From an uncultured Thermodesulfatator sp. (GTDB lineage Bacteria > Desulfobacterota > Thermodesulfobacteria > Thermodesulfobacteriales > Thermodesulfobacteriaceae), in NCBI GenBank assembly GCA_964464535.1, contig CAYXGJ010000002.1:77989-141988 (forward strand): 64,000 nucleotides of DNA, given 5' to 3'. The position numbers were made by a program, and so were the translations under genes. Shown in pieces: positions 8,232 through 18,279 of the stretch. Each line of letters starts with the position of its first letter. Positions within the stretch are counted from its first letter, which is position 1. The notes under the pieces were generated by a model. The model did not search any database and was not told the origin of the DNA. It was given only the letters and a program-made list of their open reading frames with translations.

Positions 8232-8510
8232 ATGAATAAGGCAGAATTAGTAAAAAGAATGGCAGAAATTGCAGAAGTACCTAAAGCAGCTGCAGAGAAG
8301 CTTTTAGATGCTTTTATGAAAGCAGTTGAGGAGGCAGTATCTAAAGGAGACAAGGTTGTATTAGTTGGATTTGGAAGCTTTCAAGTGGTTAAAAGAGCTG
8401 CCAGAGAAGGAAGAAATCCAAGAACTGGTAAACCCCTTAAAATTCCTGCCAAGAAGGTGGTAAAATTTAAACCTGGTAAAAAGCTTGAAGTAGCAGCTCA
8501 AAAAAGGTAA
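8232..8510 (+). CDS. hup: DNA-binding protein HU
   Basis: MNKAELV, GFGSF, AREGRNPRTG, KFKPGK. Confidence 0.95.
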   Translation: MNKAELVKRMAEIAEVPKAAAEKLLDAFMKAVEEAVSKGDKVVLVGFGSFQVVKRAAREGRNPRTGKPLKIPAKKVVKFKPGKKLEVAAQKR

Positions 8511-8518
8511 AATTTTTT

Positions 8519-8555
8519 AATTTTAATTGGGGGAATTTTTCCCCCAATTAAAATT
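8519..8555. terminator. Probable bidirectional intrinsic terminator
   Basis: Perfect hairpin AATTTTAATTGGGGGAA-TTT-TTCCCCCAATTAAAATT followed by a T-run, between the convergent hup and 844-aa genes. Confidence 0.75.
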
Positions 8556-8573: not shown

Positions 8574-11108
8574 TTAATATTCTATAGATTTTATATCTTT
8601 ATTAATTGGGTTAATAATTTTAAAATTTAAAATGTTTCTTTTTTGTAAATAATAGGGAAGTTTCCAGTTTTGTGTGATTAAATCTTTTTGAATAAATATA
8701 ATAAATTGATTAGATTTAAAAGTTTCTAAAAGTTTTTTGATTTTTTCTGATAAGTCTTCTAATCTGAAAACTTGAGCCTCATAAAAATTTTCAAAATTAA
8801 ATTTTTGTAGATTTTCTGAAGCTACAAATAATGAAAATAAATAATCTTTATAAGGAGGGTTTAAAAAGTCTATTTCGGGTAATTTTGAAAGATCCTTTTG
8901 CGAAAGCCCTTTTAATCCATTATTTAAAATTTTTAAAAATAACTCAGGATCAACCCCGATAGTTAATACTTTTATTTTATTCATTTTTGCCCATTCTATT
9001 ACCTCTAAAAGTGCTTTCACATGGATATAATCTATATTTTTTAAACTTTCTTTTAGTTGAAATTCTGAAAGCTTATTTTCAAAATAATCCTCTAAAAGCC
9101 TTTGAAAGAAAGGTGGTAAATCTAAGGCTAAAATAATGTTTCTATTAAAATTATAAAGACTTTGCAAAAGATTTTTTAAATAATCCTTACAAAAAGGAAT
9201 TTCCTTTTCTATGCCTGCTAAAATTATTTGAGAATTGATGTATTTTAAAGCTTCTTCTCTAAATGAAAAATTACTTTTTATGCAGGTTTCTTCTGAAAAT
9301 AAGGGAATAAATATAGGTATCCCTTCAAAGGTTTTGTCTTCCCTTTTTAAAATAACTTTTCCAGATCGGATAAATATTTCTGAATAGGGATTCAGAGAAA
9401 CTAAATTTTTTAATGCCTCATCTAATTCATTTTGAGAAGAAACGTGTAGATAACCTATTATATATTCAGAATTATAAGGATTAGGAATAACTTTTAGATA
9501 AAAACCTTCAGAAGGTGGGTTAAACTGCCAAGTAAGGGGAGAAATATTTAAATAAATCAAATTCTCAAAAATTTTAGAAATTTCTGAAAACTCAATAAAG
9601 GAAAAAGATATTTTATAACCTAAATTTCTAAAATAATCAATAAACTTTTTATAAGTTGGAAGATCATCCTTTTTGAGAATAATTGTTCCTTGAGAATAAA
9701 AAAGCTTAGCTATACAATTGGGTATTTCCTCAAAATCTAAATTTCTCCAAAGTTTATATTCAGGATCTATAAATATTACTTCTGGTTTTCCGTTAACAGA
9801 AATTTGAAAATCTTGGGTTTCCTTTTCTAAATTTAAAACTACAAATTTACTCCCCTTTTCAGTTTCTATCTCAAGAGAGATAGGTATAGATTTGACCAAA
9901 TTTTTTGAGGCTAAATTTGTATAAAGGGTTAAATCTAACAAATAAAAATCTTTTTCTTGTATAATAGATTTAACTTCCCCCCTTAAATTTAGTTTTTGGA
10001 ATTCCTCATAAGAAATTATAAAGTTTTTAAATTCTGGATAACTTTGTTGAATTAAAATTAAAAAATCATTTAAACTTCTAAAGTTAAAAATACTCTTTTC
10101 ATAAAATTTTTTGAAAAAGTTTATAAAATTTTTCTCCCCAATTCTTTCAGCTAAAAATAAAAAATAAAAAAAAGCTTTAGATTCTTTTTTGGGGAATAAA
10201 ATCTGTAACTTTCTAAAATCTTTTTTATTTTCAGCAAGTTGATAATCTATTAAATAGGTGATTAAACCTTCTTTTATTTCTTCTTCTAAAAGTATTTCAT
10301 CTTCAAGTTTTTTCTTAGTTAAACAATGTAAAAATTGTTTCGTATCTTTCAAAGATGAATAACTAATAAATAAAACATTTGAAAAACTTTTAACCTTAGG
10401 AAAATCTTCAGGGACCAAAATAAGGTGAAATATTTTAAAAGGATGTAAGAAAATTCCTATATTTTCTAAATGATAGGCAAAGGTCTTAAAATTTTCAAAA
10501 ATTTTTTTTAGATCTTTTTCAGATAAAGTATAAAGCTGTGGAGAATAATAAAAATAAAAAGAAAAGTTTTTATAGGAAAATTTCATTTTTTCTAATTTAA
10601 AGGGACTTATAATTATGCAAGGATTTAAAAGAGGATTTTGAGTTTTAAAGGTATAAAGCAAAAAGTTTTTATCTCTTTCTATTTTTGATTCTTCTGAAGG
10701 AATTAAGATCTCCATATTTTCAAAAGTATCTGGAATTTTGAGGTTAATTTGATAAGTAAAGGGTTTACCAGGATAAGGAAAAGGAGGATGAACAATTGTT
10801 ATAGGTAAAAGATAGGGATTAAGATTTTTTTCAAAGGATATATATAAAGAACTTTCTTCTTTAGTAAAAATTTTTAAAAATTCTTCTTGCTCAAACAAAA
10901 GAACTTCAGAAGAGGTTTGAACTTCATTTATAGTAAGATCAGAAGTTATAAATTTATATTCTCCATTTAAATTGTCTGTAAAAAGAGAGCCCTTAAGAAG
11001 ATTTAACTCTGGATAAAGTTCTAAGTCTATTTTAAGAAGAGGAGTTCCTAAGGAAAGATTTGGTAAAAAAAGAATCCAAAAAAATAAAATATAAGTAAAA
11101 AGCCTCAT
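8574..11108 (-). CDS. Exported 844-aa protein: degenerate M1-aminopeptidase-like region fused to a degenerate ChaN-like domain
   Basis: N-terminal signal-like segment; KEGLITYLIDY (M1 'EGLTTY'-like); PEVIFIDPEYKLWRNL linker; C-terminal WAKMNKIKVLTIGV...GLKGLS...FENFYEAQV resembling ChaN. Canonical HExxH and GExH are not present. Confidence 0.55.
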   Translation of the reverse strand: MRLFTYILFFWILFLPNLSLGTPLLKIDLELYPELNLLKGSLFTDNLNGEYKFITSDLTINEVQTSSEVLLFEQEEFLKIFTKEESSLYISFEKNLNPYLLPITIVHPPFPYPGKPFTYQINLKIPDTFENMEILIPSEESKIERDKNFLLYTFKTQNPLLNPCIIISPFKLEKMKFSYKNFSFYFYYSPQLYTLSEKDLKKIFENFKTFAYHLENIGIFLHPFKIFHLILVPEDFPKVKSFSNVLFISYSSLKDTKQFLHCLTKKKLEDEILLEEEIKEGLITYLIDYQLAENKKDFRKLQILFPKKESKAFFYFLFLAERIGEKNFINFFKKFYEKSIFNFRSLNDFLILIQQSYPEFKNFIISYEEFQKLNLRGEVKSIIQEKDFYLLDLTLYTNLASKNLVKSIPISLEIETEKGSKFVVLNLEKETQDFQISVNGKPEVIFIDPEYKLWRNLDFEEIPNCIAKLFYSQGTIILKKDDLPTYKKFIDYFRNLGYKISFSFIEFSEISKIFENLIYLNISPLTWQFNPPSEGFYLKVIPNPYNSEYIIGYLHVSSQNELDEALKNLVSLNPYSEIFIRSGKVILKREDKTFEGIPIFIPLFSEETCIKSNFSFREEALKYINSQIILAGIEKEIPFCKDYLKNLLQSLYNFNRNIILALDLPPFFQRLLEDYFENKLSEFQLKESLKNIDYIHVKALLEVIEWAKMNKIKVLTIGVDPELFLKILNNGLKGLSQKDLSKLPEIDFLNPPYKDYLFSLFVASENLQKFNFENFYEAQVFRLEDLSEKIKKLLETFKSNQFIIFIQKDLITQNWKLPYYLQKRNILNFKIINPINKDIKSIEY

Positions 11109-11140: not shown

Positions 11141-11169
11141 TTGAAATATAATAACAGAGTTACTATACT
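11141..11169 (+). promoter_or_regulatory. Sigma70-type promoter of purQ-tatC
   Basis: TTGAAA 11141-11146, 17 nt, TATACT 11164-11169. Confidence 0.55.
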
Positions 11170-11195
11170 AAGAAAATCTAATTTTGTAAAGAAAT

Positions 11196-12008: not shown

Positions 12009-12775
12009 TGAGTTCTAAAAAAATAGCTCAATTTTTAAAGAAATTTTTAAAATTATGGAAACAAAAGGGTGCTTTAATAATATTTTTATTAATTACTATT
12101 TATTTAACTTTTTTCTGGCTATCTCCTTATATTTTAAAATATTTTCAAATCAACTATAATCAAAAGTTTATTTTTTATAGTGTTTCAGAACCCTTAGTGT
12201 CACTTTTAAAATTTTCTCTAGTTTTGACCTTTATCCTTTTATTTCCTTTCCTTTGGTATTTTTTAATTTCTTTTTTCAATTTCCTTTATTCCTTCAAAAA
12301 GAGTCATTTTTGGTTGTTTTATATATTAGGAATTTTTCTATTTTATTTAGGAATAGTTTTTTGCTACAAAGTTACCCTTCCTTTTGGGATAAAATTTCTT
12401 ATTTCCTTTAAAACAGAAAAGATTGAGCCAGCTATTTCTCTTGGTCACTTTGTTAATTTTTTTAGTTTTTTTGTTCTTGCTTTTGGACTAATTTTTGAAT
12501 TACCCTTATTTATCTGTTTTTTATCTATGGGGAAAATCATTAATCCTTTAAAACTTGGGAGCTATAGAAAAGAGATTTTTTTTATGATAGTGATAATTGC
12601 AGCCTTAGTTACACCTACCCCAGATGCCTTTAATATGTCTCTTCTTGCGATCCCCTTATATATATTATTTGAACTTGGTTTATTTTTAAGTAAGCTTATT
12701 CAAAAATCAGAAGCTATTTCAAAGGTTTCTAATACTCCTTTGGAGGATACCCAGAAAGAGCCTCAGAAAGATTAG
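12005..12775 (+). CDS. tatC: Twin-arginine translocase subunit TatC
   Basis: Multi-TM; FGLIFELP, AALVTPTPDAFNMSLLAIPLYILFELG. Confidence 0.9.
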   Translation: MMSSKKIAQFLKKFLKLWKQKGALIIFLLITIYLTFFWLSPYILKYFQINYNQKFIFYSVSEPLVSLLKFSLVLTFILLFPFLWYFLISFFNFLYSFKKSHFWLFYILGIFLFYLGIVFCYKVTLPFGIKFLISFKTEKIEPAISLGHFVNFFSFFVLAFGLIFELPLFICFLSMGKIINPLKLGSYRKEIFFMIVIIAALVTPTPDAFNMSLLAIPLYILFELGLFLSKLIQKSEAISKVSNTPLEDTQKEPQKD

Positions 12776-13289
12776 CAGCTTTATCTGGAGGCATAGCACT
12801 TAAAATACTTGCTATTTGTTGACTTTTCAATTGACTTAATATTTTTACAGCCATATCCTTATCCATATTTATTAAAACTTCAGCAGCCTTTCCTGCTCTC
12901 ATCTCAGATATAGCTCTTGCTAAAAGTTTAGTTCTTTCATCTTGTATAGCCTCAATTTTACTAAGTTTTTGATCTATGGTAGTTTCTAAATCTTTCAAAG
13001 CTGCCATTTGTTCACGAATTCTTTTTTCTATTAATTCTAATTCTTTTTCTCTTAATTCTATTTCTTTAGCTTTCTCAAAGAGTTTCGCTCTTTCTAAATC
13101 AAGGACTTCAAAAAATTCAGGAGGGCATCCTGTAAGAGCAAATTCTTCTTTTGCAGAAACTCTATTTACTTCTGAAAAGATTAATACTGTTACTAATATA
13201 AATTTAGTTACTCCTAAAAATATCAAAAACCAAAAAAGATTTTTAATTCTCACTTTAAAATTTATTTTAAATTTAAAAAGCCTATACAT
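12729..13289 (-). CDS. Flagella-associated MotE/FlbB-like protein (TM, coiled coil, MgtE_N-like domain)
   Basis: N-terminal TM, charged coiled coil, MRAGKAAEVL...ASILSAMPPDKAANLS; directly after fliJ. Confidence 0.7.
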   Translation of the reverse strand: MYRLFKFKINFKVRIKNLFWFLIFLGVTKFILVTVLIFSEVNRVSAKEEFALTGCPPEFFEVLDLERAKLFEKAKEIELREKELELIEKRIREQMAALKDLETTIDQKLSKIEAIQDERTKLLARAISEMRAGKAAEVLINMDKDMAVKILSQLKSQQIASILSAMPPDKAANLSEALSGYPPKEY

Positions 13290-13722
13290 AGTCTCTTCCT
13301 CTTCTTAAAAGAACTAAATCATCCATCTCTTTATAAAATCTTTTAATGTTTTCCAAATCCCATATTTGTTTGACCTTATTTTTTGAGATTTCCATTAATT
13401 TTCGCTCTTTATAGGCTTTTTCTAAAAGCTTAAGAAGAGTTTTTAATTCTTCATTTTGCATATCAATTTTTTTATTTAATAAAATTTCAAATTCTTTGTT
13501 TTTTTCTATCTGAAATAACCTATATTTGAATTCTTCAGCACTAAAAATACATCCTTTTTCTAAGGAATCGTAATAACTCTTTCTAAGAGAAATAATTGTT
13601 TCTTTTTCTTGTAATAATTTTTCAAGGTTTATTCTACAGTTTATAACTCTTATTTTAGTTTGTTCTTCTTGAAGGCTTTTATACCAAGTCAAGAGTTTTA
13701 AAATCTCTAATTTTTTTCTCAT
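13282..13722 (-). CDS. fliJ: Flagellar export protein FliJ
   Basis: 146-aa coiled coil right after fliI; KERKLME and EMDDL near the C-terminus. Confidence 0.75.
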   Translation of the reverse strand: MRKKLEILKLLTWYKSLQEEQTKIRVINCRINLEKLLQEKETIISLRKSYYDSLEKGCIFSAEEFKYRLFQIEKNKEFEILLNKKIDMQNEELKTLLKLLEKAYKERKLMEISKNKVKQIWDLENIKRFYKEMDDLVLLRRGRDYV

Positions 13723-15035
13723 AATTTTTTATTAAAAATTTCTCTTAATAAGTTTACCGAATCTTCTAAAGAGTATTTTTCTTCCACAGGTTGTTTTAGA
13801 AAATTTTTTAGCTCTCCTATTAAAGAAAGAGCTCTATCTATTTCAGGATTAGAACCTTTTACATAAGCCCCTATATTTATAAGATCTTCAGCCTTTTTAT
13901 AAGTAGCTAAAATAGCAATAGTTTGATAGGCTAAATCTAAATGTTCACTTGGCACAATATCTCTCATTACTCTACTTATACTTGTAAGGATATCAATAGG
14001 AGGATAATGTCCTTCATGAGCCAGATCTCTTGAAAGTACAATATGTCCATCCACTATGCTTCTCACTGAATCAGCTATAGGGTCATTAAGATCATCACCC
14101 TCTACCAAAACATTATATATTCCGGTAATATCACCTGCCCCGATTTTTGGACCAGCCCTTTCTAAAAGTTTAGGAAGTATTGCAAATACAGAGGGGGTAT
14201 ACCCACGAGCTGTAGGAGGTTCTCCAGAGGCAAGACCTATTTCTCTTCCTGCCATACAAAACCTGGTTAAAGAATCCATAAGAAGAAGCACTTTATATCC
14301 TTTGTCTCTAAAATATTCAGCAAGAGAAGTAGCATAATAGGCAGCTCTTATTCTTATAGATGGTGCTTCGTCGGAGGTTGCTACTACAACCACTGATTTT
14401 TTTAATCCATCCTCTTTTAAATCTCTTTCTATAAATTCTCTTACTTCTCTTCCTCTTTCTCCTATTAAAGCAATAACATTTATATCTGCATTAGTATATC
14501 TTGCTATCATTCCAAGAAGAGTACTTTTACCAATTCCAGAGCCTGCCATTATAGCTACCCTTTGTCCTCTTCCTATAGTTAGAAGTGCATTAATAGCTTT
14601 TATTCCCACATCTAAAATTTCTTTTATCGGAGCTCTTTCCAAAGGCTTTAGAGGTTCTCCGTAAAGAGGATAATAGTCTGAAATTTTAGGCTTTCTCTTA
14701 TTATCTAAGGGTTCTCCTAAAGCGTTTACTATTCTTCCAAGAAAATCTTCTCCTACAGGTGCATAGGAAGAACCTACAGGAAAAACTTTTGCTCCTACTT
14801 CAATTCCTTTTATATCCCCTAAGGCTGTTAGTAAAAGTTTATTATCCTTAAAACCTATTACCTCTGCAATTAAACTTGTATTTTGTCCTTCAATTCTGCA
14901 AAGATCCCCAACCTTTAAAAAGGGGCCGCTACTTTCAATGGTTAAACCAATAAGTTTGGTAACGTATCCATAAATTTCAAAAGGAATCATTTGTGAAATT
15001 TCTTTTTTGTATTCTTCTAAACTTTTAACCTTCAT
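13719..15035 (-). CDS. fliI: Flagellar export ATPase FliI
   Basis: Walker A AGSGIGKST, IGERGREV, LMDSLTRF, DPIADSVRSIVDGH. Confidence 0.96.
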   Translation of the reverse strand: MKVKSLEEYKKEISQMIPFEIYGYVTKLIGLTIESSGPFLKVGDLCRIEGQNTSLIAEVIGFKDNKLLLTALGDIKGIEVGAKVFPVGSSYAPVGEDFLGRIVNALGEPLDNKRKPKISDYYPLYGEPLKPLERAPIKEILDVGIKAINALLTIGRGQRVAIMAGSGIGKSTLLGMIARYTNADINVIALIGERGREVREFIERDLKEDGLKKSVVVVATSDEAPSIRIRAAYYATSLAEYFRDKGYKVLLLMDSLTRFCMAGREIGLASGEPPTARGYTPSVFAILPKLLERAGPKIGAGDITGIYNVLVEGDDLNDPIADSVRSIVDGHIVLSRDLAHEGHYPPIDILTSISRVMRDIVPSEHLDLAYQTIAILATYKKAEDLINIGAYVKGSNPEIDRALSLIGELKNFLKQPVEEKYSLEDSVNLLREIFNKKL

Positions 15036-15729
15036 CTTTTAAAAGGCTATCTAGAAGTTTTTTCCATCTTTTTTCAAAGGTTGCATCAATGACCCCTAAG
15101 GAGGTTTCAATAAATACTCCCCCCTTAGAAATGGATTCATCAGGAATTAATTTAATTTTTTGAGAAGGAGGTATATACTTTGATAGATTTTCTTCTAAAA
15201 ATTTATATTCTTCAGGATTTACTTTAATATTTAATTCTGTTCCCTCAGCAATATAATTTAAAGCTTCTTTTATTATTCTTAGTGGAATTTCAGGGTCTGC
15301 CTTGATTTCTTTTAAGGTTAATTTATTTGCTATATCTAAAGCTAAGTTTAAGATTTCTTTATCCATATTTATAATTGATTCTTGAATTTCCTTTTCTGTA
15401 TTTTTAAAAAAGGTTTCTATTATTTTAATTTTTTCTTGAAATTCTGTTTCTAATTTTGTTGCCAAGTTTTTATATTTTTCTTCTGCCTCCTTTTCCCCCT
15501 TTTCAAAACCTTCTTTATGTCCTTTTTTATATCCCTCAAGATAACCCCTGTTAAAGCCTTCTTTATAACCTTTTTCAAACCCCTCTTCTTTAATTTTATT
15601 TTTTTCTTTAGGATTAACTTTTAAGTTTACTTCAAAGATAGATTGGAAGGTTTCATTTTCTGTAGGTATTAAATCAGGTTTAATAATAGAAACTTCAGGC
15701 TTTTTTTTGGTTTTTAAAATTTTAGACAA
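15025..15729 (-). CDS. fliH: Flagellar assembly protein FliH
   Basis: GxxxG repeats (EGFEKGYKEGFNRGYLEGYKKGHKEGFEKG), DESISKGGVFIETSLGVIDA; between fliG and fliI. Confidence 0.92.
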   Translation of the reverse strand: MSKILKTKKKPEVSIIKPDLIPTENETFQSIFEVNLKVNPKEKNKIKEEGFEKGYKEGFNRGYLEGYKKGHKEGFEKGEKEAEEKYKNLATKLETEFQEKIKIIETFFKNTEKEIQESIINMDKEILNLALDIANKLTLKEIKADPEIPLRIIKEALNYIAEGTELNIKVNPEEYKFLEENLSKYIPPSQKIKLIPDESISKGGVFIETSLGVIDATFEKRWKKLLDSLLKDEG

Positions 15730-16732
15730 ATTCTTCTTCTCCTCTAGTGAGAACTATTTTCCCTTCTTGTTCTAATTTTTTAGCAGTTTTTATAATATTT
15801 TGCTGAGCTTTTTCAACTTCTGTAATTCTAACTGGGGGCATTAATTCCAATTCTTCTTTAAGTAAGTCAGCAGCACGTTTACTCATATTTCTGAAGAATT
15901 TTTCCTTTACTTCAGGGGAGGCACCTTTTAGAGCTAATTTCAAATCATCGGTTGAGATTTCTCTAAGAAGATTCTGTATTGCAAAATCATCAACCTTAAG
16001 AAAGTCTTCAAAAGTGAAGAGATGTTTTCTTATTTCTTCAGCTAAAGCAGGATTTTCGTCCTCAATTTCAGTTAAAAGTTCATCTTCCAAAGTTCTTCCT
16101 GCATGTGCTAAAATTTCTGCAGCTTTTTCAGGTCCTCCAATTTTTCTACCTAAGGCTCCTCCTACACTTTGCAATTCAGCTTCTAAGGAATCGCTTATTT
16201 CTTTTACAATTTCAGGGTCAACCTTATCTAATAAAGCAATTCTCAACAGAACTTCTCCTCTTATTCTTTCCGGAAGAAGTTGTAAAACCTGTCCAGATAA
16301 ATAGGGATCAAGGTGAACTAAAATAATAGCTATGGTTTGAGGATGCTCATTAGCAAGGAAACTTGCAATAGTTTTAGGATCAAGTTTTCTCAATTTTTTA
16401 AAAATTTCAGGCCCGATTTCTTTTTTAATTTCTTCATAGAGTTCTTTACCTTTTTCTCCATAAGCTTTTAATAAACTTTGTTTCAAAAAATCTTCTGGAG
16501 AGACATTAATATTTCCTAAAATCTCTTTTACTTCCATATTAGCTTCCTCTAAAATTTTTCTGACTGCTTCAGCAGGTATATATTCAATCTTAGCCATTTC
16601 AATTCCTATTCTTTTAATATCTTCTTCATCTAAATACTTGTATACCTCAGAAGTAAATTCTTCACCCATTAACATAAGGAAAATAGCTGCTTTTTGTGGT
16701 CCGGTTAATTTATTGGGGTCTATTTTAGCCAT
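15722..16732 (-). CDS. fliG: Flagellar motor switch protein FliG
   Basis: GPQKAAIFL, EHPQTIA, GG linker, LFTFED, ALKGA, NMSKRAA. Confidence 0.97.
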   Translation of the reverse strand: MAKIDPNKLTGPQKAAIFLMLMGEEFTSEVYKYLDEEDIKRIGIEMAKIEYIPAEAVRKILEEANMEVKEILGNINVSPEDFLKQSLLKAYGEKGKELYEEIKKEIGPEIFKKLRKLDPKTIASFLANEHPQTIAIILVHLDPYLSGQVLQLLPERIRGEVLLRIALLDKVDPEIVKEISDSLEAELQSVGGALGRKIGGPEKAAEILAHAGRTLEDELLTEIEDENPALAEEIRKHLFTFEDFLKVDDFAIQNLLREISTDDLKLALKGASPEVKEKFFRNMSKRAADLLKEELELMPPVRITEVEKAQQNIIKTAKKLEQEGKIVLTRGEEEFV

Positions 16733-16734
16733 TT

Positions 16735-18279
16735 TTAATATCCAGCCTCAGATAGAGCTTTTTTCCTTTCTTCTAATGTTTCTTCTAAAAGCCACTTTTT
16801 AATAAGCATAGCAGCTCTTTCTGGCTGACTCTTTATAATTCCCAAGGCAATTTCTTGAGGTAAGGGACCTAGTTCTTCTTCCTCAGGAGGAGTGGGTATA
16901 CCAGGGCGGGTAGGTGGTGCTTCTACAGGAATAGGCTTTGGTGTAAGGGCTTTAATAAGGGGTCTTATAACAAAAAGAAAGATAAGAATTAAAGCACCAA
17001 TTAATAAAAGAGGTTTATAAAATTGGGATACATAATCCATTATACCAGGTTTTGGCATAGGAATTTTTACAAATTCTTCAGCTTGTATTTTTACCTCATC
17101 TCCTCTATCAGGATTGTATCCTATAGCACCTTTTACCAATTCTTCAATCCAAGTAAGCTTAGCAGTAGAATTTTCTCCCAAAGCATTTTTGTCTACCAAA
17201 ACTGCTACACTTATTTTTTTAATACTTCCAGGAGAAATTTCAAGGTTTCTAAGTTTCTTACTAACTTCATAATTTTTGAGACTTCTTTTTTTAAAATAGG
17301 TTTCTCCTTGAATTTGAGGAGAAGTTGCTTCCATTTTTTTAAGAAGAGTTCCTTTTACACCAGCTTCTCCACCCTCATCAGGGATTTTGCTTGTTTTTTG
17401 TTCTTCTTCTGTTTCTTCAGAGACAACCGCTGTTCCTTCAGGGTCATAGATTTCTTCTGTAATACTTTCTTTATCAAAGGAAAGATCCACCCACACTTGA
17501 GCTATGGCTTTTCCATAACCTAAAGCTCCTGAAAGTATTTCTTCTATTTTGTCTCTTAATTGCTTTTCTACTTTTTCTTTATAGGCAAATTTGGTAACTG
17601 GTACCTCTTCTTCCTCTAAAGGGGTATAGAGGCTTTTCCCAGTATTGGCATCTACAACAGTTACATTTTTAGGATCAAGTTTTGGGACAGCTCCACTTAC
17701 TAAATTAACAATACCCTTTATTTGAGAAGGAGTTAATTGATAACCTGGGGTTAGCTCTATTAATACTGAAGCTTTAGGAGGTTTTTCTTCCTCTATAAAC
17801 ACAGTTTCTTTAGGTAAAGCAAGATGAACTCTTGCAGATTTTATTCCTCTTATTCCCATAATAGTTCTTGCAAGTTCCCCTTCAAGAGCCCTCTGATAGG
17901 TTATCTTTTCTTGAAACTCTGTAAGCCCCATTTTTTCCTTATCAAAAAGTTCAAATCCAGGACCACCTCCTCCAATAAATCCTTTACTTGCTATTTCCAT
18001 TCTCATTTCAGGAACCTTATCCTTAGGTACATAAATACTTCCGTCCAATTCTACTTTATAAGGAATTTTTTGTTCTTTAAGATACTGCACAATCTGACCG
18101 GTTGTCTGTTCGTCAAGACCTCTATAAAGAAGTCCCCAATTAGCCTTATTATATAACCAGATACTTAATATTAAAAGCAAGGTAATTCCTATAGATCCAC
18201 CAATAAAAAGTCTTCTTTGTTTTCTATCTAGTCTTTTCCAAAAATCTATCAGTTGATAGAGTATTTTTCTTAAATCCAT
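16735..18279 (-). CDS. fliF: Flagellar MS-ring protein FliF
   Basis: Two TMs; GFELFD, YQRALEGELARTI, ARVHLALP, NYEVS, GYNPDRGD. Confidence 0.96.
   Translation of the reverse strand: MDLRKILYQLIDFWKRLDRKQRRLFIGGSIGITLLLILSIWLYNKANWGLLYRGLDEQTTGQIVQYLKEQKIPYKVELDGSIYVPKDKVPEMRMEIASKGFIGGGGPGFELFDKEKMGLTEFQEKITYQRALEGELARTIMGIRGIKSARVHLALPKETVFIEEEKPPKASVLIELTPGYQLTPSQIKGIVNLVSGAVPKLDPKNVTVVDANTGKSLYTPLEEEEVPVTKFAYKEKVEKQLRDKIEEILSGALGYGKAIAQVWVDLSFDKESITEEIYDPEGTAVVSEETEEEQKTSKIPDEGGEAGVKGTLLKKMEATSPQIQGETYFKKRSLKNYEVSKKLRNLEISPGSIKKISVAVLVDKNALGENSTAKLTWIEELVKGAIGYNPDRGDEVKIQAEEFVKIPMPKPGIMDYVSQFYKPLLLIGALILIFLFVIRPLIKALTPKPIPVEAPPTRPGIPTPPEEEELGPLPQEIALGIIKSQPERAAMLIKKWLLEETLEERKKALSEAGY

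Follow-up and report, generated by a model that had tools for sequence, protein, structure and literature searches.

What keeps a protein in a genome when the catalytic residues expected in both of its hydrolase-like domains are missing? The question is raised by a gene in a 64,000-nucleotide (64-kb) stretch of a hot-spring bacterial genome labelled as an uncultured Thermodesulfatator sp. (GCA_964464535.1, contig CAYXGJ010000002.1, positions 77,989 to 141,988), hereafter the window. An uninterrupted open reading frame (ORF) of 844 codons at 8574-11108 on the minus strand, with its stop codon at 8574-8576, makes up the complete gene, and its product, hereafter the window protein, is 100% identical to database protein P0001. 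The original prediction, made from the sequence alone, described an intact 844-residue protein with a signal-like N-terminus, an M1-peptidase-like half and a ChaN-like half, and proposed that it is retained as a non-catalytic scaffold or binding protein with a new function. The ORF list and a Sec-type signal peptide agree with the first part of this description, and all the motif strings quoted for the two halves were found in the translation at the expected places, a direct reading of the sequence with no statistics involved. On the evidence given below, it is highly probable that the window protein is a conserved double pseudoenzyme. That it is a conserved double pseudoenzyme acting as a periplasmic, non-catalytic binding or scaffold protein, taken as one combined statement, has in our estimate a probability of about 0.6, and the specific binding or scaffold mechanism is put forward only tentatively from the sequence and its comparisons.

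Structural comparison agrees with the assignment of both halves, as Foldseek returned the expected folds and not different ones. The full-length protein was modelled with AlphaFold2 (AF2) from a 37-sequence alignment (predicted local distance difference test score, pLDDT, 83.8; predicted template modelling score, pTM, 0.77). In this model, the fold of residues 22-455 is that of M1 aminopeptidases (Foldseek E ~1e-19). Against the PDB, residues ~20-540 matched IRAP, ERAP1/2, PfA-M1 and PepN with E-values of 1e-19 to 1e-16 and a probability of 1.0 over ~540 columns. The M1-like body, encoded like the whole protein on the minus strand, begins with an N-terminal β domain similar to M1 domain I (residues 22-195; 10524..11045), which is all-β in the AF2 model and lies inside the Foldseek alignments to IRAP, ERAP1 and PfA-M1. 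It is followed by a thermolysin-like domain lacking the catalytic centre (residues 196-372; 9993..10523), delimited by the Foldseek M1 matches and by hhalign comparison with P0015, a distant relative in which the Pfam Peptidase_M1 match covers residues 308-448. The body is completed by a domain III-like β sandwich (residues 373-455; 9744..9992), recognized from the AF2 secondary structure and ending in DPEYxLWR (D448, R455). A helical domain IV was not found: α/β and ChaN domains follow the β sandwich in the model, and good superpositions on M1 structures stop at ~540 columns.

To read the active site of the M1-like half, the window clade was aligned by MAFFT to 94 relatives possessing both sites, which an exhaustive profile search had supplied. 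In these intact relatives the site reads SLG-H-E-x-x-H-QWFGN...NW-x-E-G-LTTYL, together with GYGKG, and the H, E, H, E and Y residues are all 100% conserved (n = 94). In the window protein, the corresponding strings are KQFLHCLTKKK and IKEGLITYLIDY, the latter containing E280 within IKEGLITYL. What is left of HExxH-x17/18-E is thus a vestige, H261-C262-L-T-K265...E280 (10269..10328, minus strand), with the spacing HCLTK-x14-E; the catalytic Glu is replaced by C262 and the second zinc His by K265, and H261 and E280 remain. Within the double-dead clade, i.e. the window protein and its relatives lacking both sites, 62% of the sequences retain H261 and 38% retain E280, and position 262 is occupied by C, A, L or Y. 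The exact register of the former HExxH differs between methods (D--TK in hhalign, HCLTK in MAFFT), but the choice is immaterial because neither register gives HExxH or restores the zinc site. Moreover, the loop carrying the transition-state Tyr (xYxKG; GYGKG), present in 94/94 intact relatives, has been removed by a deletion of ~25 residues in the window protein, and its column is deleted in 13/13 double-dead sequences and in 6/6 members of the half-dead Group II described below. The GxMEN exopeptidase motif is also absent: the window protein has KVKSFSNV at this place, and the intact relatives have TGYSMPTF, aligned to GAMENWG of tricorn-interacting factor F3. Pfam PF01433 (Peptidase_M1) gave no match in the window protein even at E <= 10, compared with 57.4 bits against a cut-off of 27.7 for P0015. 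Likewise, an NCBIfam scan of the window protein assigned no family, and phmmer against PDB sequences returned chance-level matches only (AGR3, NCS-1; E > 0.1).

In place of M1 helical domain IV, the window protein has a middle α/β domain (residues 456-605; 9294..9743, minus strand), delimited in the AF2 models, and a ChaN/TIKI-fold domain without the 2His/2Glu motif (residues 606-844; 8577..9293, minus strand), supported by Pfam PF04187 and Foldseek. The middle domain has no convincing structural relative, as Foldseek gave only weak BcsB-like matches (E 0.04-0.09). The ChaN-like domain matches PF04187 (Cofac_haem_bdg) with 44.1 bits (cut-off 27.7; E 3e-11) over residues 647-803, corresponding to profile positions 29-195 of 213, so that the match begins downstream of the GExH motif. 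For a separate model of residues 455-844 (pLDDT 84.5), the sole strong Foldseek match was ChaN of Campylobacter jejuni (PDB 2G5G; E 4.8e-7, template modelling score 0.64), followed by Pasteurella multocida toxin (PMT), EreC, HopBA1, BcR135 and RRSP. The TIKI fold shared by these structures consists of a parallel β-sheet core with helices on its flanks. A profile of 15 ChaN-domain sequences also found 2G5G (E 9.5e-14), which phmmer with the single P0015 ChaN domain against the PDB had missed.

The catalytic centre of the TIKI fold is a 2His/2Glu motif, and each of these residues is essential in RRSP (PMC6254334). Three of the four are lost in the window protein (I633, K635 and L810 stand in their places), and the fourth is either D663 or a gap. 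The first motif survives as G632-I633-E634-K635...K641 (9186..9215, minus strand), where the intact family and Group II have E, H and H in 100% of sequences. The strand Glu (xEMF) corresponds to L662-D663-L664-P665 (9114..9125, minus strand) and falls, depending on gap placement, on D663 or on a deletion of one residue. The second motif, GxxH, is reduced to Q807-K808-D809-L810 (8679..8690, minus strand), with Leu in place of a His that is 100% conserved in the intact family and Group II. The original prediction had named the GExH and LEMF positions, and the alignment upholds these assignments as well as those in the M1-like half. The losses go further than it had described, extending to the Tyr loop, to ChaN positions H641, W693, N718, H768, D783, H810 and R820, and to a C-terminal PDZ domain. 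Intact relatives display xIG-E-x-H-xxxxx-H, IGM-E-MF, YFxRW, N718, an H-P motif, QxLW-D-E-TMA and AGxG-H-xxYGxGIP-x-R. By contrast, the window protein has GIEK...K641, LDL, no RW, G718, Q768, RLEDLS and QKDL...Y820, which amounts to E633I, H635K, H641K, H768Q, D783L, H810L and R820Y in addition to the loss of W693 and N718. The altered GExH and strand-Glu positions lie within ILAGIEKEIPF (G632-K635) and LALDLPPFF (D663), and the ChaN-like stretches EWAKMNKIKVLTIGV, WAKMNKIKVLTIGV, GLKGLS and FENFYEAQ are present further on. Of about a dozen polar ChaN positions invariant in the intact family, only E784 survives. No match to a PDZ domain was found in the window protein, which ends ~10 residues after the ChaN domain.

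Fusions of M1 and ChaN domains had been mentioned in the original prediction as occurring in some anaerobes; they indeed form a large family, normally with a PDZ domain as well. An orthologue search with the window protein recovered 14 close orthologues (48-86% identity, Thermodesulfobacterium-type) and the distant P0015, in which Pfam identifies Peptidase_M1, a full-length ChaN domain (219 bits) and PDZ. The orthologue profile aligned to P0015 over 777 columns (hhalign probability 99.7%, E 3e-27), and this end-to-end alignment indicates that the whole protein, not merely its C-terminus, is homologous to the M1-ChaN-PDZ architecture. More than 2000 proteins share this architecture at E <= 1e-10, many of them labelled Nitrospirota, and the profile search returned 805 cluster representatives at E <= 1e-3. 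They go by database names such as 'ChaN family lipoprotein', 'hypothetical protein', 'aminopeptidase N' and 'uncharacterized iron-regulated protein'. Literature searches for the M1-ChaN fusion family, or for PF04187 by accession or Pfam name, found nothing relevant. In the PDB, the best sequence match of the intact family is tricorn-interacting factor F3 (E 4.5e-14). Judging from its motifs, namely HExxH-x17-E instead of x18 and the lack of GxMEN, as seen for example at residues 280-345 of P0015, the intact family is unlikely to be a classical aminopeptidase, even though 'aminopeptidase N' is one of its labels.

Within the family, the M1 site is the one that is lost repeatedly. HExxH has disappeared several times independently in ~1000-residue M1-ChaN-PDZ proteins (P0158, P0178, P0222, P0243, P0247, P0258, P0268, P0274 and, with HGVLH, P0134), and the ChaN motifs and PDZ are intact in these proteins. 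The converse state, with ChaN dead and M1 alive, was not seen among the aligned relatives. Recurrent loss of the M1 site, with no such case of the converse, suggests that the ancestral function centred on the ChaN-PDZ module. Another feature is shared by all 113 aligned members, whether dead, half-dead or intact: D448, R455 and E461 in D-P-E-Y-x-L-W-R...E-I-P (residues 440-461; 9744-9790) are 99-100% conserved. This conservation points to an inter-domain architecture that has been preserved. The DPEYxLWR...E461 segment lies where the β sandwich meets the middle domain and probably acts as a latch between the two.

Is the loss of the two sites a peculiarity of the window genome? All 14 close orthologues, the T. 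commune group and the L006/L007 lineage (33-35% identity) lack both sites, which answers the question of lineage-wide loss left by the original prediction. Four states can be arranged in order. In state I, found in most of the family, the proteins have ~950-1030 residues and retain both sites and PDZ. In state II (Group II; P0143, P0145, P0146, P0148, P0152 and P0153, some of them named Caldimicrobium sp.), the M1 site and Tyr loop are lost, and every ChaN residue and PDZ are kept (926-975 residues, ChaN scores of ~190-220 bits). State III, which includes T. commune, T. hveragerdense and T. thermophilum, has a dead M1 site, keeps only 'GE' of the ChaN motifs and lacks PDZ (860-873 residues, ChaN 48-71 bits). 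State IV is the window clade, with no catalytic residues left. A deep branch (IVb; L006, L007 and P0140), 33-35% identical to the window protein, is without GE and keeps the His of the second GxxH motif (EKHRIIYGWGLP). In Pfam scans, PDZ is present in Group II and the intact proteins and absent from every double-dead group.

A neighbour-joining tree (779 columns, Poisson distances, 300 bootstraps) is consistent with this order: the double-dead clade is recovered with 100% support, as are its grouping with Group II apart from the intact proteins and the union of states III and IV. A long stem branch leads to the double-dead clade, and the tree must be read with the reservation that fast-evolving sequences may have been joined by long-branch attraction. 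Furthermore, the gene converges on hup in the window, in L006 and in L007; with all these genomes belonging to Thermodesulfobacteriaceae, this arrangement agrees with vertical descent. The simplest history compatible with these sequences would be a single loss of the M1 site, then a single inactivation of ChaN accompanied by loss of PDZ, after which the leftover residues drifted independently.

If both sites are gone, is the gene decaying? Synteny of the window is complete with L001, L002, L003 and L005, so that neighbouring genes can serve as controls for the ratio of nonsynonymous to synonymous substitution rates (dN/dS, or omega). Against L001, where dS is unsaturated (0.28), dN/dS of the gene is 0.25 by the Nei-Gojobori method (0.22 by YN00; 95% bootstrap interval 0.19-0.33), and that of the neighbouring genes ranges from 0.04 (fliG) to 0.23. 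Every part of the protein is constrained in the same comparison: dN/dS is 0.33 (0.16-0.65) for the N-terminal β domain, 0.31 (0.16-0.62) for the M1 catalytic-like domain, 0.29 (0.12-0.79) for the β sandwich, 0.15 (0.08-0.29), the lowest of all domains, for the middle α/β domain, and 0.24 (0.15-0.37) for the ChaN-like domain. Overall values against L002 and L003 are 0.21-0.26, and the independent IVb pair L006/L007 gives 0.19 (0.15-0.23), with dS near saturation. With every bootstrap upper bound below 1, the gene is under purifying selection and clearly not neutral. Thus, loss of both sites together with retention of the gene, as originally predicted, is borne out. The novelty of the function is not established in the same way, since the role that was kept could just as well be non-catalytic and ancestral.

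An alternative metal-binding site was looked for among the 92 columns that are at least 85% conserved across the 13 double-dead sequences, and none is visible. There is no His or Cys among these columns, and F, L, P, G and Y account for 64 of them. His and Cys residues of the window protein are mostly variable in the 14 close orthologues, only C465 (13/14), C164 (11/13) and H261 (12/13) being largely kept. The former catalytic positions vary among orthologues in which the adjacent GLITYLIDY, FFYxLFL, DPEYKLWR and GFYLKVIPNP are invariant. The only hint of a new site comes from a group of acidic residues in the ChaN-like domain: E745, E773 and E788 (residues 745-788; 8700-8880) are 92-100% conserved in the double-dead clade only, and D747 and E784 are common to the dead clade and the intact relatives. 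E745, E773 and E788 could form a lineage-specific acidic patch or cation site.

The N-terminus of the window protein suggests where it would act. Residues 1-21, MRLFTYILFFWILFLPNLSLG (11046..11108, minus strand), followed by TP, read as a signal peptide with n-, h- and c-regions of the Sec type and a small-x-small cleavage site, the predicted cut falling after S-L-G; in the AF2 model this segment has a helix at residues 2-14 and low pLDDT at 13-21. Comparable hydrophobic N-termini occur in every group of the M1-ChaN family. The signal looks like a signal peptidase I type, and the protein is predicted to be exported to the periplasm. No lipobox Cys is present in the 844-residue protein, the first Cys being C164 with none in the first 160 residues, and hence the protein is not a lipoprotein in spite of the database name 'ChaN family lipoprotein'.

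The gene is monocistronic, convergent with the HU gene hup (8232-8510, plus strand) and divergent from purQ-tatC. A promoter-like pattern, TTTACA-17-TATAGT (11162..11190, minus strand; 10/12 consensus matches), lies within the 87 bp that separate the start codon from the divergent purQ. Between the convergent hup and the 844-codon gene, a terminator scan found a perfect palindrome (8519..8555) with a 17-bp stem, a GGGGG/CCCCC core and flanking A/T runs, likely a bidirectional intrinsic terminator. An intact M1-ChaN paralogue was sought by tblastn within the 64-kb window, and none was found. A flagellar cluster (12729-18279, minus strand, and beyond) lies 1.6 kb from the gene; its fliG, fliI and fliJ-like genes were assigned by size and sequence inspection, and fliH and an upstream fliF are less certain. 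A link of the 844-codon gene to flagella was considered and rejected because the cluster is on the other side in L006 and absent from the 14-kb locus of L007. Antisense to, and mostly inside, the 186-codon flagellar-cluster gene at 12729-13289 (minus strand) is a 110-codon ORF (12976-13308, plus strand) with a low-complexity, serine-rich product. Its copies in L001 and L002 are 76-92% identical because the ORF shadows a conserved flagellar-cluster gene, and it is almost certainly not a gene. Contig L001 (CAZZLG010000063.1), fully syntenic with the window and with proteins 79-97% identical (mostly at least 85%), is labelled 'uncultured Thermodesulfatator sp.', a label that looks doubtful: the window is AT-rich, with a guanine-plus-cytosine (GC) content of ~24-35%, and other close relatives are labelled Thermodesulfobacterium.

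Several observations weigh against a useful non-catalytic role. The gene has the highest omega in the syntenic block, and it evolves fast, its product being 85% identical to that of L001 compared with 88-97% for most neighbours (79% for a perM-like gene). A frameshift at about residue 471-475 interrupts the orthologue in one T. commune genome: on a contig of 282,617 bp, P0292 (488 residues) corresponds to residues 1-471 of the 868-residue P0137 plus a frameshifted tail, and P0296 (394 residues) to residues 475-868. This split copy is either an assembly error or a real pseudogene, in which case the gene is dispensable in some backgrounds; together with the highest omega, it implies that constraint is modest and that some strains may be able to do without the gene. 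Gene context offers no functional linkage, as the gene stands among unrelated housekeeping genes, and the surroundings of intact relatives are equally uninformative (mnmG/mnmE/yidC, or glucoamylase/usp/kup/ftsH). A search for RNA evidence found the sequence only in DNA runs, from hot-spring and sediment metagenomes. Moreover, loss of catalysis is judged from motifs defined in related families. The rate, the split copy, the lack of any sign of expression and the long stem branch would all be expected of a relic on its way out, nearly useless since both losses and eroding slowly, in which the apparent constraint reflects selection against misfolding or too little elapsed time. We regard such a relic as unlikely. 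Omega values of 0.19-0.26, with upper bounds of at most 0.33 and each of the five domains below 1, are not those of erosion; full-length ORFs of ~840-870 residues persist in every sampled lineage of a clade diverged to 33% identity, when a neutral 2.5-kb ORF at ~27% genome GC would quickly gain stop codons; and other T. commune genomes carry an intact 868-residue gene (P0285, on 24 contigs).

A further alternative is an enzyme whose active site has been rebuilt, for instance from clustered carboxylates of the ChaN domain or from H261 and E280 with new partners. The clade-specific conservation of E745, E773 and E788, in the same domain as D747 and E784, makes a carboxylate-based site composed of these five residues, all conserved in the dead clade, conceivable and counts against the protein being inactive, as does the persistence of H261 and E280 in the window protein itself. 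However, the latter two are not conserved among orthologues (62% and 38%, as given above), there is no conserved nucleophile-type triad any more than a conserved His or Cys, the conserved columns are mainly hydrophobic, Pro or Gly, and the PDZ domain that accompanies active ChaN domains was discarded together with the ChaN site. A rebuilt enzyme is therefore, in our judgement, quite improbable, and the window protein would be without any enzymatic activity. Less probable still is a heme or metal binder, or shuttle, acting like C. jejuni ChaN through ligand binding that does not depend on the TIKI catalytic residues. The heme-binding background cited in the original prediction is sound, the title of 2G5G describing a heme complex; this is the closest solved structure of the ChaN-like domain, and family members are often annotated 'iron-regulated protein'. 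Yet C. jejuni ChaN keeps the complete GExH...H, LEM and GxxH set (GEKHDEVKH, LEM and AGSYH in 2G5G), and the window protein differs exactly there, so that its domain is degenerate even relative to the 'heme-binding' ChaN. Nor is there any TonB-dependent receptor, heme or iron transport gene nearby in the window or in the relatives, and in the dead clade no ChaN-domain Tyr is conserved in 85% of sequences, just as no His or Cys is.

We therefore return to the conserved, non-catalytic binding or scaffold protein, and the scenario that would lead to it can be outlined as follows. A Sec-exported, probably periplasmic protein of four modules would have descended vertically from the widespread family in which M1, an α/β linker, ChaN/TIKI and PDZ are fused. 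The first loss in Thermodesulfobacteriaceae would have been that of the M1 site (HExxH, the distal Glu and the Tyr loop), and the second, in one ancestor, that of the TIKI 2His/2Glu centre together with PDZ, the remaining catalytic positions then drifting differently in each sub-lineage. Purifying selection has maintained the folds, the inter-domain contacts and the reading frame, so that the protein appears to have a useful role that does not need catalysis. Most likely, the former substrate cavity would bind a periplasmic peptide or protein; the window protein would thereby act as a scaffold or adaptor, sequester its ligand, or regulate another enzyme.

How does the window protein compare with known systems? 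The Nitrospirota-type M1-ChaN-PDZ proteins (~1000 residues, e.g. P0015) share with it the domain order, signal peptide, middle domain and D448/R455/E461, but have HExxH-x17-E, the GYGKG Tyr, the full TIKI set and PDZ, which the window protein lacks, and are only ~20% identical to it. Its sister group, the Caldimicrobium-type Group II from the same bacterial family, shares the loss of HExxH and the Tyr-loop deletion and is half-dead, keeping, unlike the window protein, every ChaN catalytic residue and PDZ. C. jejuni ChaN, the founder of PF04187, has the same fold as the C-terminal domain, but is a stand-alone protein of ~270 residues, whereas the window ChaN domain is fused behind an M1-like body. 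With its full TIKI signature, C. jejuni ChaN may itself also be a hydrolase.

Dead hydrolase scaffolds of other kinds are already known, and pseudoenzymes are well documented in eukaryotes. In TAF2 of eukaryotic TFIID, an M1 fold that has lost its zinc site persists as a non-catalytic scaffold, although TAF2 is nuclear, keeps helical domain IV, has no TIKI domain and lost its site independently. EnvC and NlpD, the dLytM factors of Gram-negative bacteria, are periplasmic metallopeptidase folds that have lost their zinc ligands and bind and activate amidases. We propose them as a possible functional analogy for the window protein, with the differences that they have an unrelated M23 fold, a single dead domain and experimentally established partners. 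To our knowledge, bacterial pseudoenzymes are mostly such single dead domains (EnvC, NlpD). What is new here is that two unrelated hydrolase domains are both dead in a single bacterial polypeptide, which purifying selection maintains across a bacterial family, and that intermediates of the decay are extant. For the TIKI fold, a precedent is provided by the C1/C2 domains of PMT, which lack the 2His/2Glu motif and have no endopeptidase activity (PMC6254334). PMT C1/C2 (2EBH/2EBF) is a Foldseek match of the window ChaN domain and, like it, a TIKI fold without the motif, but it belongs to an intracellular toxin of a pathogen, in another domain context and with no close sequence relationship to the window protein.

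These comparisons bear on the parent family as well. Joint loss of PDZ and the TIKI site is indirect evidence that PDZ serves the ChaN/TIKI activity in the M1-ChaN-PDZ family, and the independent M1-site losses with ChaN intact make the ChaN domain appear the more indispensable module. It is possible, though doubtful, that the parent family is an unrecognised periplasmic protease machine with two active sites, in which TIKI/ChaN and the linker would replace M1 domain IV and close a shared chamber and PDZ would select substrates, the Thermodesulfobacteriaceae protein being a dead derivative kept, like dLytM factors, as a binding or regulatory scaffold. The results also call for caution against annotating proteins of the window type as 'aminopeptidase N', 'iron-regulated protein' or 'lipoprotein', and only an identified ligand or phenotype would give them more than limited practical significance. 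If the protease-machine proposal were true, Caldimicrobium, T. commune and the window clade would represent successive stages of a natural experiment in the conversion of a bifunctional enzyme into a pseudoenzyme. Overall, the lineage provides a clean system in which to ask which non-catalytic function keeps double-dead scaffolds alive.

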